IMG/VR virus record: IMGVR_UViG_2671180012_000001
From: a virus
Taxonomy: Duplodnaviria > Heunggongvirae > Uroviricota > Caudoviricetes
Reading direction: 5' to 3' (one strand)
DNA length: 11,915 nucleotides
The stretch's first letter is position 1. Every line of letters starts with the position of its first letter. The position numbers and the translations under genes were made by a program. Positions 6,108 through 9,614 of this stretch are shown in pieces. The notes below the pieces were generated by a model, which was not told the DNA's origin, did no database searches, and saw only the letters and a program-made list of their open reading frames with translations.

Positions 6108-6422
6108 ATGCGCATACATAAAAATCACTTAATAAACATGCCAGCCGAAAACATGAATCAGGGGCGACAAATGACCAAAATTCGCAGAGACAGAACACAG
6201 GCAAAATATAAAGCGTTAGACATGACAGAGCTTTCCTTAAAGGTGGCAATCAAAGCGATAGACCACCACACACGGGCAGGATACGCGAAGGAACATCCCG
6301 ACCTGATAAGCGCATTCATGACCACAGCAGCGGCAAACTTTGCCACGCTGACAGAACGGGAGATTGCCGAAGCGGAACAGGTGACAACCATCAATGTTAA
6401 AACCGGAGAGCAGACAGCATGA
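6108..6422 (+). CDS. Hypothetical protein; start uncertain (alternative ATG at 6171 has a better RBS)
   Basis: ORF in the track; ATG at 6171 is preceded by AGGGG (6160-6164) at 6-nt spacing. Its stop overlaps the SSB start (ATGA at 6419-6422). Confidence 0.45.
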   Translation: MRIHKNHLINMPAENMNQGRQMTKIRRDRTQAKYKALDMTELSLKVAIKAIDHHTRAGYAKEHPDLISAFMTTAAANFATLTEREIAEAEQVTTINVKTGEQTA

Positions 6423-6868
6423 CAGCACAGATAGCGGCTTACGGGCGGCTGGTGGCTGACCCGCAGTTAAAGACCACCAGCAAAGGGACACAAATGGCGA
6501 TGGCGAGTATGGCGGTTCCCCTGCCGTGCAGCCAGGCAGATGACGGAACGGCGACGATGTGGTTATCCGTCCTGGCGTTTGGCAGACAGGCCGACGCACT
6601 GGCAAAACACCACAAAGGCGAACTGGTGAGCGTGGCGGGTAACATGCAGGTAAGCCAGTGGACAGGCCAGAACGGCGAAACGCGGCGGGGCTGGCAGGTT
6701 ATCGCAGACAGCGTAATCAGTGCGCGAACGGCGCGACCGGGCGGCAAAAAAGGCCAACAGGGGCAGGCTACTGACGAACTGAACAGAGCAAAACAACAGG
6801 CAGATCAGCAAGGAAGCCAGCCACCAGTGGGAGATAATGAGCAATGGGGAGATGATATCCCGTTTTAA
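6419..6868 (+). CDS. ssb: Single-stranded DNA-binding protein
   Basis: 149-aa ORF with an OB-fold-like N-terminal region (IAAYGRLVADPQLKTT...WLSVLAFGRQADALAKHHKGELVSVAGNMQVSQWTGQNGETRRGWQV), a Gly/Gln-rich linker and the hallmark acidic C-terminal tail ending DDIPF, as in E. coli SSB. Confidence 0.85.
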   Translation: MTAQIAAYGRLVADPQLKTTSKGTQMAMASMAVPLPCSQADDGTATMWLSVLAFGRQADALAKHHKGELVSVAGNMQVSQWTGQNGETRRGWQVIADSVISARTARPGGKKGQQGQATDELNRAKQQADQQGSQPPVGDNEQWGDDIPF

Positions 6869-7084
6869 ATATTGCCAATAAAAAAGGCCGGAAAAAATAA
6901 ATTTTCCGGCATGCTACATAAATCCCGACCAAAGGGAGTGAAGATATTAACACTAATTGTCCGCACTGAAGTTGTCACCCCAAAACTTTATACAACATTG
7001 CACTCGGTTGCATGTGTTCGCATGACAAATATCGGTGGTAGCATATATCCACAATTATTTTTAATGAATGCAAAGAGGATGCGT

Positions 7085-8125
7085 ATGGTTGATTTATATT
7101 CGCCTACTCAGCTTGTACAGGTGGTTAATGCTGTAGATGTACAAAAACAACTAAATGCGTTGTTTACCAGTTTGTTTTTTACTCGCTCGGTAATGTTTGA
7201 ATCGCGCGATATTATTCTTGATACAATCGACGATCCAAATATCCCAATTGCAGCGTTTTGTTCTCCTATGGTGGGTAGTAAAGTTTCACGTGACGAAGGG
7301 TACGAATCAAAAACAATTCGTCCAGGCTATATGAAGCCGAAAAGCAGCATTGATCCAAATAAGTTAGCTGTGCGCCCTGCTGGTGTATCACCTGAGCAAT
7401 ACAATGCTTTTGGGGCACGTAATATTAAAGTTAAACAGGCGATTGTAAATCAGGCTAAAGCTATTCGTGCACGTATTGAATGGCTTGCTGTTCAGGCAAT
7501 CACAACGGGGAAAAATATCATTGAGGGCGATGGTATTGAACGTTATGAGCTGGACTGGAATATAAAACCACAAAATATCATCACTCAGTCTGGCGGTACT
7601 GAGTGGTCAGGTAAGGATAAAGAAACTTTTGATCCAAATGATGATATTGAGAGCTACGCAGAATTTAGTGAGGGCGTCACTAATATCATCATTATGGGTG
7701 GTAATGTATGGAAGAAATACCGTTCATTCAGAGCGATAAAAGAGGCTTTGGATACCCGTCGTGGTTCTAATTCCGAACTGGAAACGGCCCTTAAAGACCT
7801 TGGTGATTCGGTGAGTTTTAAAGGGTATATGGGCGATGTTGCGATTGTTGTTTACAGCGGGCGTTATACCGACGAGGACGGAACAGAAAAACATTTCCTT
7901 GATCCTGATTTGATGGTGCTTGGCAATACGGCTCTTCAGGGGATTGTCGCCTATGGCGGTATTCAGGATCCGGAGCTAATCCGAATGGGGCTGACTAAAG
8001 CCGAACTTGCACCGAAAAACTATATTGTGCCTGGTGATCCGGCTATTGAATATGTGCAGACACATTCAGCACCACAGCCAATACCGGCCCGCATCAATCG
8101 TTTTGTTACCGTTCGCATTGGCTAA
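7085..8125 (+). CDS. Major capsid protein, lambda gpE family
   Basis: Translation aligns along its length with lambda E from memory, e.g. ITQSGGTEWSGKDKETFDPNDDIESYA, DTRRGSNSELETALKDLG, YMGDVAIVVYSG, MVLGNT, HSAPQP. Homology begins at MVDLYSPTQL (ATG 7085, GAGG at 7075-7078); the track ORF start at 6872 is an upstream in-frame extension with no homology. Confidence 0.85.
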   Translation: MVDLYSPTQLVQVVNAVDVQKQLNALFTSLFFTRSVMFESRDIILDTIDDPNIPIAAFCSPMVGSKVSRDEGYESKTIRPGYMKPKSSIDPNKLAVRPAGVSPEQYNAFGARNIKVKQAIVNQAKAIRARIEWLAVQAITTGKNIIEGDGIERYELDWNIKPQNIITQSGGTEWSGKDKETFDPNDDIESYAEFSEGVTNIIIMGGNVWKKYRSFRAIKEALDTRRGSNSELETALKDLGDSVSFKGYMGDVAIVVYSGRYTDEDGTEKHFLDPDLMVLGNTALQGIVAYGGIQDPELIRMGLTKAELAPKNYIVPGDPAIEYVQTHSAPQPIPARINRFVTVRIG

Positions 8126-8134
8126 GGGGGAGCA

Positions 8135-8476
8135 ATGGCTACTCATTACACTGAACTCATGGCTGGCACTGAAGCACTGGTGACTACGCTGGGGATATTT
8201 TCAGCTAATAAAGGGGTAATTCCTGCATTTACGCCACTGATGCAGGAAGATGCAACAGGTGCACTGGTGGTATGGGATGGTTCGAGCGTAGGTAAAGCGG
8301 TTTATGTTTCCGCTGTACAAATCGACACAGCGAAAAAAACACAGGCACAGGTTTATAAGACAGGTGTTTTAAATGTTGATGCTCTGAACTGGCCTGAGTC
8401 TGTAAAAGAACTGTCGGCAAAGGTTGCCGCGTTTGTTGGCTCAGGTATTTCTGTTCAGCCGCTGGCTCGTGTGTAA
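8135..8476 (+). CDS. Head decoration protein, lambda gpD family
   Basis: 113-aa ORF with AAGGGGGA RBS. Aligns with lambda D from memory: [20 protein letters not shown] vs [37 protein letters not shown] vs [27 protein letters not shown] vs TAFAGTAISIV. Confidence 0.8.
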   Translation: [113 protein letters not shown]

Positions 8477-8487
8477 AGGGGGATACA

Positions 8488-8871
8488 ATGCAGAATCATT
8501 ACAATGACCTTAAGCCAATTGCCGAAATGATGTATCCGGATCCAGCAGTAGAGGAATTAAAGGCTATTGCTGACAAAATGCGTTTAAGTGAACGCCTTGT
8601 TGATATGAATCAGGTGATGGAACTTACTACCCTTAGCCGTCGCACATTGCTAAACCTTGAGGCTAGTGGAGAGTTCCCGGAGCGTGTGCAGGTTACGGAA
8701 GGGCGTAAGGCCTGGTATTTAAGTGAAGTGATCGACTGGATAAACAATATTCCTCGATCTTCTGAATATTGCCGCGTACCTGTCCCAAAAAAGCCAGATG
8801 CGGCGCTATGCCTCAAGATTGAGCGTGTACGTCGCAATGCACGGGATGGTCGCTATAAGTTGATTGGTTGA
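8488..8871 (+). CDS. HTH DNA-binding protein (AlpA/MerR-like fold) with N-terminal extension; candidate regulatory or packaging-specificity factor
   Basis: 127-aa ORF with AGGGGGA RBS. The segment MELTTLSRRTLLNLEASGEFPERVQVTEGRKAWYLSEVIDWI fits an AlpA-type HTH. It lies directly upstream of the cos site. Confidence 0.6.
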   Translation: MQNHYNDLKPIAEMMYPDPAVEELKAIADKMRLSERLVDMNQVMELTTLSRRTLLNLEASGEFPERVQVTEGRKAWYLSEVIDWINNIPRSSEYCRVPVPKKPDAALCLKIERVRRNARDGRYKLIG

Positions 8872-8880
8872 TGAAATTAG

Positions 8881-8965
8881 GGCCCGTTCTGGCTGGCGGG
8901 TCCTTTCCGGCGATCCGGTAGGCTACGGGGCGGCGACCTCGCGGGTTTTCGCTATTTATGAGCCT
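8881..8965 (+). other. Lambda-type cohesive-end site; cosN 12-nt overhang sequence GGGCGGCGACCT at 8928-8939
   Basis: GGCTACG-GGGCGGCGACCT-CGCGGGTTTTCGCTATTTATGA matches the circularised lambda cos junction as recalled (right end ...GGTTACG, left end GGGCGGCGACCTCGCGGGTTTTCGCTATTTATGAAAA...). The upstream cosQ-side segment (CGGGTCCTTTCCGG.GATCCG) is also similar. Sequence downstream of 8962 (the cosB position) diverges from lambda. Confidence 0.8.
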
Positions 8966-9072
8966 TTTTCGGGTGCTGGTGGTGGTTTTGTTGTTCGCTC
9001 TATCTCTATGAATAAAAAGGAAAAGATAAAGCCAATACACCAACCTGAAACATTACTTAAGTGGGGATATTG

Positions 9073-9614
9073 ATGAAATCGCACCTGATGAACAAAAAAA
9101 ACATGGCGCAAAGCTGCCGTGTAAGTGCGACAGCGTTCGACAAGTGGGGAGTGACTCCCGTTGAACGTAAAGGCCGCGAGGCGTTTTATGATGTTGCCAG
9201 CGTAATAGACAATCGGGTTAGCAATGCAATTAACCAGATTACAGACGACAAAGGCGAGATTGATGATGATGAACTCCTACGAGTCAGGATCAGATTGCTG
9301 ACAGCACAGGCAGAGGCGCAGGAGCTTAAAAACGAGCGCGAACGCGGCGACGTTATTGATACAGCGTTTTGTATATACGTGCTTTCAAAATTGGCGAGTC
9401 AGATTTCTTCAATCATGGACAGCCTGCCGCTTGCCATGACAAGGAAGTTTCCCGACATGAAGCCGTCTATGCTGGATGGACTGAAAAAGAAGTTATCAGA
9501 GCCTGTAACGCATGCGCAAAACTTGACGAAAACATACCGCTGATGCTGTCCGATTATCTGATGGAAACTGCCGGAAACGTACCGGATAAGTTGCAGCCGA
9601 ATAAAGATAAGTAA
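9073..9614 (+). CDS. Terminase small subunit, lambda Nu1-like; full-length reading requires a -1 frame change at the A-run 9484-9490
   Basis: N-terminal frame (track ORF 9061..9543) aligns with lambda Nu1 from memory (LLTAQAEAQELKNERERGDVIDTAFCIYVLSKLASQISSIMDSLPLAMTRKFPD vs LTRAQADAQELKNARDSAEVVETAFCTFVLSRIAGEIASILDGLPLSVQRRFPE). The Nu1-like C-terminus (EKEVIRACNACAKLDENIPLMLSDYLMETAG vs KRDIIKAMNKAAALDELIPGLLSEYIEQSG) is in the -1 frame (track ORF 9369..9614). Start taken at ATG 9073 (GGGGA RBS); the true start could be 9088. Confidence 0.75.

Follow-up and report, generated by a model that had tools for sequence, protein, structure and literature searches.

A prophage-embedded satellite of the Escherichia coli PICI family with its own capsid, decoration, cos and small-terminase genes

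We analysed a stretch of 11,915 nucleotides (the window) from the virus record IMGVR_UViG_2671180012_000001, in which positions 6419-9614 encode homologues of head and packaging proteins of phage lambda. An initial annotation had taken this region for a satellite island which hijacks a lambda-like helper phage and carries capsid, decoration, cos and small-terminase genes of its own. The island belongs to a family of E. coli phage satellites that has been described before, the Gram-negative phage-inducible chromosomal islands (PICIs), and is an ordinary representative of it; it is of the helper-embedded type (HE-PICI) and occupies the portal-gene site. Positions 6419-9614 are, with high probability, the replication-distal 'late zone' of this 10.9-kb element, a grading that applies jointly to the whole explanation developed below. 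The features of the zone, together with the gene that follows it, are:

6419-6868, + strand: SSB, single-stranded DNA-binding protein (Pfam SSB 6.4e-16)
7085-8125, + strand: major capsid protein (E) of the lambda E family, apparently of a satellite-specific lineage (Pfam Phage_cap_E 1.1e-41, profile positions 4-327 of 329)
8135-8476, + strand: head decoration protein (D) of the lambda D / phage 21 SHP family, apparently of a satellite-specific lineage (Pfam HDPD 4.1e-15)
8488-8871, + strand: second helix-turn-helix (HTH) protein of the AlpA family (Pfam Phage_AlpA 1.1e-8; PDB 8C3T 6.6e-10)
8896-8961, + strand: cos core, the block common with the helper cos and containing cosN (66 bp, 95% identical to the surrounding prophage's cos in related genomes)
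8978-8998, + strand: putative satellite cosB, R3-equivalent, GGTGGTGGTTTTGTTGTTCGC (bp 51-71 from the cohesive end)
9073-9614, + strand: small terminase (TerS) of the Nu1 / N15 gp1 type, frameshifted (Pfam Phage_Nu1 9.5e-22; PHROG terminase small subunit 7e-42)
9626-9907, + strand: conserved 93-aa protein that follows TerS or Rpp in PICIs (PHROG 1561 1.2e-55)

Profile searches confirmed that the genes at 7085-8125 and 8135-8476 belong to the lambda capsid and decoration families, and the order E then D, the reverse of that in lambda, had been described correctly. E also matched the PHROG major head protein (2e-89) and the lambda gpE structure 7VI9 (4.7e-77), and D the PHROG head decoration family (6e-26), phage 21 SHP (1TD0, 3.8e-16) and lambda gpD (1C5E, 8e-12). 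The best solved-structure match of E was PDB 3BQW, a 'putative capsid protein of prophage' (2.7e-121); this chain appears to be c1499 of the model island EcCICFT073, because its aligned sequence matches the c1499 alignment. Upstream of the annotated start codon of the capsid gene (ATG, 7085) its reading frame stays open for another 71 codons, back to a TTG at 6872 (6872-7084); EcCICFT073 and one further island (L012) have instead a separate 68-aa ORF (open reading frame) abutting the capsid gene start.

E and D are 42% and 38% identical, respectively, to the E and D of the surrounding helper prophage. None of the 437 matching records among 50,697 phage genomes exceeded 60% identity to E, the best being of lambda type with 42%, and identity among PICIs ranges from 55 to 99%. 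The E-D segment was found in 395 of 5,426 complete E. coli genomes (at least 80% coverage). The whole E-D-HTH-cos-TerS-93aa module also occurs at tRNA-Pro, in classical PICIs whose integrase is a different one, and in an HE-PICI inserted in a helper's E gene. The ratio of nonsynonymous to synonymous substitution rates (dN/dS), computed against relatives at 1-18% nucleotide divergence, was 0.05-0.08 for E and 0.09-0.15 for D, against 0.18-0.24 for TerS and 0.20-0.36 for SSB in the same islands. E and D are under strong purifying selection and are not decaying. The sequence comparisons indicate that the two genes are not recent captures, that their lineage is confined to satellites and that they are co-inherited as a structural pair. 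As to SSB, its dN/dS was the highest among the compared late-zone genes, and its gene is 27 nt longer than in several near-identical islands (149 versus 140 aa).

These data bear on the possibility that the island acquired E and D only recently from the late genes of a helper, as a backup for genes disturbed by the insertion. It has been proposed that PICIs capture late genes and back up the gene they interrupt (PMC10111431), and relatives with the same module are indeed inserted in the helper E gene. However, the window island interrupts the portal gene and not E or D, and it carries no portal gene. The distance of its pair from that of the helper, with no sequenced phage closer, and the conservation of the module at 55-99% across PICIs at unrelated sites point instead to long residence in satellites. 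We therefore judge recent capture very unlikely and keep to an old satellite lineage of E and D.

The cos site had been called lambda-type and this was upheld, since GGGCGGCGACCT at 8928-8939 is identical to lambda cosN and is the sole exact match in the window. By arithmetic, about 0.001 exact matches to a 12-mer are expected in 2 x 11.9 kb; the shuffle control covered matches with up to 2 mismatches. cosN and its flanks are common to the island, EcCICFT073 and the helper, which diverge fully about 22 bp after cosN, and the island sequence downstream of the cos core is unrelated to lambda cosB. There, TerS-type PICIs from three distinct insertion sites have a conserved 21-bp block, GGTGGTGGTTTTGTTGTTCGC, that is absent from the helper and from EcCICFT073. 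The TTGTTGTT core of this block also occurs in the R3 region of phage N15, whose cosB consists of a single R3 site at bp 48-60 (PMC9026076). A near-invariant TerS N-terminus is conserved alongside this block in TerS-type PICIs, and we infer that TerS and the putative cosB form a pair.

The cohesive end of the island matches that of its helper in L001, one of the complete genomes described below. The more general idea that the two ends are always the same was rejected, as it fails in the E-gene HE-PICI: there GGGCGTCAGGCG is the end of the island and GGGCGGCGACCT that of the helper. The 12-nt cohesive end varies among close TerS-type PICIs (GGGCGGCGACCT, GGGCGGCAGACG, GGGCGTCAGGCG) while the flanks and the putative cosB are conserved; the variants were seen at L010 10798-10809, at L011 10845-10856 and in the helper cos of L014, and the embedded island of L011 differs at 5 positions from the cohesive end of its own prophage. 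The first part of the putative cosB (8978-8985) holds GGTGGTGG, and EcCICFT073 (L003, about 2610-2622) has the reverse complement CCACCACC at a similar distance from cosN, a coincidence that may be due to chance.

For the gene after cos, a Nu1-like small terminase had been proposed. The family assignment stood; the gene had, however, been taken as intact and a 1-bp frameshift in it was overlooked. We also considered that this gene could be Rpp, the protein by which EcCICFT073 retargets the helper TerS. This was rejected: no BLASTP similarity to the EcCICFT073 counterpart was found, and searches of solved chains at E<=1 gave chance matches only. Judged by its profile matches, the gene is a Nu1-family terS and not rpp. 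The closest phage TerS is N15 gp1 (47.6% identity). The C-terminal half of TerS aligns well with the helper Nu1, including the last ~30 residues, and the N-terminal DNA-binding part is diverged.

The reference for the frameshift is a 99.9% identical island; over 10,946 bp it differs by 6 substitutions and a single indel, a 1-bp deletion in the window that turns A6 into A5 (9484-9488) and shifts the TerS frame at codon 138. As a result the frame from 9073 stops at 9543 and gives a protein of 156 aa, the last 43 residues of TerS being replaced by 19 unrelated ones; the true C-terminus, up to 9614, lies in another frame, where it matches the end of the PHROG 57 profile. Re-insertion of the A in silico gave a TerS of 180 aa, as in the complete genomes, and the gene is intact in all complete-genome relatives examined (L001, L002 and L010-L012). 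The large-terminase-binding segment has been placed in the C-terminal ~40 residues (PMC9026076). The N-terminal DNA-binding part and the C-terminal large-terminase-binding part that together characterize Nu1 and gp1 are thus both present in the 180-aa relatives and not in the window copy. Since the frameshift removes the segment held to bind the large terminase, the window copy is probably packaging-defective. The exact 156-aa TerS is on record in 61 assembly-index blocks, including a series of draft genomes; A5 thus has the look of a true allele that a lineage carries and not of an isolated error, though it may be a shared sequencing artefact. It is conceivable that low-level -1 slippage at the sequence CTG AAA AAG restores the frame.

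The remaining features of the window, which place the late zone in its element, are:

1-1242, + strand: integrase (Pfam Arm-DNA-bind_3 3e-17, Phage_integrase 1.7e-14); the window begins at its ATG
1244-1501, + strand: AlpA regulator/excisionase (Pfam Phage_AlpA 5.4e-14)
1558-2136, + strand: Bro-N domain protein of the 'Bro zone' (Pfam Bro-N 4.9e-20; PHROG anti-repressor 3.8e-85)
4068-5822, + strand: primase-replicase with D5_N, DUF5906 and Pox_D5 domains (Pfam; PHROG DNA primase 2e-175)
5830-6060, no strand: probable replication origin, with CATCTACC-type iterons in both orientations, repeat families D1-D3 and inverted pairs I1-I11
10623-10642, + strand: HE-PICI doubled motif TGTATTGCAGTGTGTATTGC (exact single match, 0 expected)
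10717-10729, + strand: core of the right attachment site attR (AAGGCGATGTATG), the right island end, common to attL (AAGGCGATTTATG) in complete genomes
10717-10946, + strand: 3' part of the portal gene (lambda B family) of the helper; in L001 and L002 RefSeq calls it 'phage portal protein, missing N-terminus'
10947-10956, no strand: run of 10 Ns, an artificial joint between two contigs

The island was found in 52 of the 5,426 complete E. coli genomes (at least 80% coverage, 98.9-99.9% identity). In the two complete genomes that were opened (L001 and L002), it splits the portal gene of a lambdoid prophage and is co-oriented with it. To the left lie nohD (Nu1), the large terminase gene, W and the 5' portal fragment; the island follows, from the integrase to the 93-aa ORF; to the right are the 3' portal fragment, the S49 protease (C), D, E, FI and tail genes. 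Nu1, A, W, B, C, D and E are all present in the helper prophage around the island. When rejoined, the portal halves give a 533-aa protein with a complete Phage_portal_2 match (8e-97). [quoted passage not shown] In the window the 3' fragment adjoins attR; it belongs to the helper and not to the island, and ends at the contig end. The dependence on a lambda-like helper that had been proposed was supported.

The att core common to both sides is AAGGCGAT(T/G)TATG. attL lies ~200 bp upstream of the window start, that is, outside the window, so that the island spans positions 1 to ~10729 here and 10,899-10,925 bp between its att cores. The window copy of the doubled motif ends ~80 bp before the att core at 10717-10729, and a second copy, outside the window, lies ~130 bp past the attL core (L002, L004). 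A doubled motif, tgTGTATTGCantgTGTATTGCa, is described as unique to HE-PICIs, ~81 bp upstream and ~132 bp downstream of the attP centre (PMC10111431).

The window is not one contiguous piece of chromosome, as the ten Ns at 10947-10956 indicate. This joint had been overlooked when the window was treated as a single stretch; the gene positions given at that time hold. The same island contig, flanked by 10 Ns, is linked to six unrelated neighbours in six draft assemblies, so what follows the gap, a tRNA-Ser fragment and mtfA, does not truly adjoin the island. The segment after the joint (10957-11915) starts inside a minus-strand tRNA-Ser gene and runs into mtfA; ARAGORN finds no tRNA there because the gene is cut.

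We compared these features with those that define PICIs (Fillol-Salom 2018 and the core set of de Sousa and Rocha 2023) and HE-PICIs (Tommasini et al. 2023). The genes are co-oriented, with an integrase and then an AlpA-type regulator at one end (Pfam, ORF map). A primase-replicase is followed directly 3' by iterons, the origin being predicted from sequence; its position immediately 3' of the primase gene is that of PICI origins (PMC6092414). The late zone supplies capsid morphogenesis (E and D) and packaging determinants (the exact cosN and the Nu1-family gene, with the caveat that terS is frameshifted in the window). The length between the att cores lies within the ~10-20 kb of PICIs. All + strand island ORFs of at least 100 aa could be assigned (integrase, AlpA, Bro-N, primase, SSB, E, D, HTH and TerS). 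Among these ORFs and in the RefSeq annotation of near-identical copies, no portal, protease, large-terminase (TerL), tail or lysis gene was found inside the island, in agreement with the initial annotation. The helper late-gene insertion that marks HE-PICIs is seen in L001 and L002. The integrase is 54% identical over its full length to that of the E-gene HE-PICI, in a single pairwise comparison.

Capsid-forming PICIs (cf-PICIs) have a large terminase, portal, maturation protease and head-tail connectors of their own, and none of these lies between the att cores. It had been argued that portal and large-terminase genes of the island just beyond the window would make it a defective prophage or a capsid-forming island. 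Such genes do lie just outside the island, but they are those of the interrupted helper prophage, and the island is for this reason neither a defective prophage nor a cf-PICI; nor is it a new class. A TerL gene and two portal genes that seemed to lie inside a longer island variant proved to be an artefact of a second 66-bp match to the prophage cos: pairwise BLAST showed a colinear island, the additional genes being those of the helper. With respect to P4-like satellites, Sid, Psu and Delta were not among the + strand island ORFs of at least 100 aa, all of which belong to other families; the cos is lambda-type and not P2-type, and the primase alone is of P4 type.

The same evidence weighs on the reading of the region as the remnant of the head operon of a decaying lambdoid prophage. 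It does contain head-gene homologues without the rest of the operon, and the small-terminase gene of the window is frameshifted. Against this, the att cores and integrase-arm motifs are intact, the gene order is canonical for PICIs with a primase and an origin of the island's own, and E and D are under strong purifying selection. Moreover, the same 10.9-kb unit stands at the same site in the 52 complete genomes, the E-D segment recurs in the larger set given above, and TerS is intact in the complete-genome relatives examined. A remnant is thus highly improbable, and the element is regarded as a satellite in what follows.

In the PICI family it is standard for an island to have capsid, decoration, cos and small-terminase genes of its own. 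The opinion that a satellite-encoded major capsid protein is non-standard for Gram-negative cos-type PICIs was wrong: of 29 reference Gram-negative PICIs, 21 have a capsid homologue (PMC10111431), the five core components that de Sousa and Rocha name for PICIs include 'capsid morphogenesis' and 'small terminase' (PMC10085698), and some Gram-negative PICIs have terS (PMC6092414). The present analysis would add a satellite-specific, constrained lineage of E and D, a TerS apparently paired with a conserved satellite cosB, and the 1-bp frameshift in TerS.

The window island resembles the published HE-PICIs (PMC10111431) in being co-oriented within a late gene of a lambdoid prophage, in its succession of Int-AlpA, Bro, replication and late zones, in the doubled TGTATTGC motif ~80 bp from the att centre, and in being an ~11-kb island with a capsid gene. 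Nothing substantive was found to set it apart; the prototype 11capE has no terS and the window island type has one.

A comparison with EcCICFT073 (Fillol-Salom 2018, 2019; PMC6092414, PMC6739421) had been suggested as a check. The same E-then-D pair is present there, c1499 being 55% identical to E and c1500 54% identical to D. The late order is the same (E, D, small gene, cos, packaging-specificity gene, 93-aa gene), the 93-aa proteins are 76% identical and the cosQ/cosN core is nearly identical. The two islands differ in that EcCICFT073 uses Rpp to retarget the helper TerS, its 144-aa gene after cos being taken to be Rpp from position and length, whereas the window island has a full Nu1/N15-type TerS unlike Rpp. 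In addition, the EcCICFT073 gene between D and cos is unrelated to 8488-8871, and EcCICFT073 lies beside phoQ on the chromosome and not inside a prophage gene.

With respect to N15 gp1 and lambda Nu1 (PMC9026076), the full-length TerS of this island type has the C-terminal stretch conserved in Nu1, and the island, like N15, has a short cosB without the lambda R3-I1-R2-R1 array and with the TTGTTGTT core at roughly the R3 position. The putative R3 equivalent is, in contrast, ~9 bp farther from cosN than in N15, and the window terS, cut short by the frameshift, stands in a satellite without an adjacent large-terminase gene. The logic is that of the pac-type SaPIs (Staphylococcus aureus pathogenicity islands) with TerS-S, where a satellite TerS reads its own packaging site and borrows the helper large terminase (PMC6739421, PMC6092414). 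Those islands differ in using headful packaging, in residing in Gram-positive cocci and in being unrelated in sequence, the window island being cos-type with lambda cosN. The data fit a satellite TerS that reads a cosB of the satellite and makes use of the helper large terminase, as a cos-type counterpart to the strategy of the pac-SaPIs and as a cassette that takes the place of Rpp. The cf-PICI EcCIEDL933 (bioRxiv 10.1101/2022.09.08.507074) has the same PICI backbone (int, alpA, rep) and likewise its own capsid and small-terminase genes; it also encodes a portal, a protease, head-tail connectors, an HNH protein and a large terminase, none of which is inside the window island.

The initial annotation had further proposed that the island remodels capsids with its own E and D. 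In this reading the two proteins would redirect helper capsids to satellite-sized heads, or build a satellite shell on the helper portal and scaffold. The pair is intact, co-inherited, under strong purifying selection and of a satellite-only lineage, as such a role would have it, and there are precedents: in SaPIbov5 the capsid homologue Ccm redirects the size of the capsid (PMC5052747, PMC8569155), and PmCI172 encodes a capsid homologue and makes small capsids (PMC6092414). SaPIbov5 is, like the window island, cos-packaged, and its Ccm is a homologue of the helper major capsid protein. Ccm, however, redirects both size and shape and has no matching decoration protein, and the test of the homologous pair in EcCICFT073 showed no size change: all DNA packaged in a lysogen of EcCICFT073 and lambda was phage-sized, and deletion of c1499 or c1500 neither changed transfer (Table 1) nor restored lambda plaques (Fig. 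5) (PMC6092414). There is also no scaffold or size-determination gene in the island.

Four copies of the island make 43.7 kb. This is about 90% of the lambda genome, so that packaging of concatemers in normal heads would be arithmetically comfortable. Remodelling is for these reasons unlikely. We are equally doubtful of the more specific form in which satellite E and D, alone or together with helper E, use the portal, scaffold and protease of the helper to build a shell of a distinct kind. If this were true, these islands would represent a 'half capsid-forming' stage between classical PICIs and cf-PICIs, and altered stability, size or helper range would be possible in natural conditions unprobed by the laboratory tests of EcCICFT073. 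A literature search for a newer functional study of capsid and decoration genes of Gram-negative PICIs returned none.

The deletion tests also bear on the idea that E and D are poison subunits or decoys, which co-assemble with the phage capsid protein and lower phage yield. PICIs commonly interfere with their helpers, a 42%-identical paralogue could plausibly co-assemble with helper E, and the genes are conserved in spite of the lack of a transfer phenotype (PMC6092414). Yet deletion of c1499 or c1500 left interference with lambda in place (PMC6092414, Fig. 5), the interference of EcCICFT073 is explained by Rpp (PMC6739421), and a poison would leave unexplained why a matching decoration protein is constantly retained. 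This role is thus distinctly unlikely, and our working view is that E and D take part, as a dispensable accessory, in capsids built with the helper portal, scaffold and protease. In lambda, D binds only to the assembled, expanded E lattice. The retention of a matched D argues that the satellite E assembles into a shell.

Taken together, these results suggest the following scheme, which forms part of the explanation graded at the outset. Upon helper induction, Int and AlpA would excise the island and restore the portal gene, as shown in the literature for a related element. The island's own primase and origin would then replicate it into concatemers. The N15-gp1-like N-terminus of TerS is predicted to bind the satellite cosB beside the lambda-identical cosN, and the Nu1-like C-terminal half to recruit the helper large terminase, with the result that island DNA would be cut and packaged. 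As in the model PICI, it would enter full-size heads of the helper type, into which four copies would fit. The helper prophage would supply Nu1, A, W, B, C, D, E, tail and lysis functions. The island E and D are expected to be functional and most likely enter or build shells beside the helper head proteins, as a non-essential accessory and not as a size-remodelling device. In the window copy, the redirection step by TerS and cosB is probably disabled by the frameshift.

Several points weigh against this explanation. Induction, excision, packaging and particle composition are all deduced for this island from sequence analysis. The role of E and D is argued from purifying selection and the biology of lambda D, and the sole experimental test, on a 55%-identical homologue, gave no phenotype. 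The TerS-cosB pairing draws on co-conservation, and the clade of the integrase was judged from one pairwise comparison (54%). The frameshifted TerS, present in many assemblies, may be a tolerated or even functional variant and not a lethal defect.

Outside the late zone, several small ORFs lie between the Bro-N and primase genes. The sole sizeable minus-strand gene of the island (2470-2775) belongs to the YlcI/YnfO family in the annotation of its relatives, and the helper prophage also has a YlcI/YnfO-family gene, just upstream of its own cos (L001 5639-5833). In the related HE-PICI in the helper capsid E gene (L011), an abortive-infection-family gene stands before attR (12222-12983) and a TIR-domain gene in the Bro zone (3772-4647); these look like anti-phage cargo. 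At the corresponding positions the window island has non-coding DNA and the Bro-N gene.

This non-coding DNA (9908-10716), ~800 bp in length, separates attR from the last gene of the island and holds no convincing ORF. Three tandem units of 54 nt lie in it (10156-10317), and each has a short hairpin, of which the stems differ (CCTGCA/TGCAGG, CCCCCA/TGGGGG and CCTCAA/TTGAGG); the fold of the three repeats gave z = -1.9 and was not convincing. The segment also has a direct repeat of 24 nt (9923 and 10109), as well as AGCCCACCAGCC-like repeats at intervals of 114-117 nt. Rfam gave no match in the whole window at the gathering threshold nor in 9880-10740 at E<=1, and no C4/isrK-type immunity RNA. 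A promoter and terminator scan of 6000-10800 found fewer promoter-like sites than in shuffles, and module boundaries were not obvious.

For annotation, the value of the result is that the stretch can be labelled correctly as a prophage-embedded phage satellite. The real puzzle is a strongly constrained E-D pair that is kept in many E. coli satellites and has no phenotype in the published deletion tests. It was already visible in EcCICFT073, and the window island makes it no more tractable, its broken terS being a poor experimental starting point.

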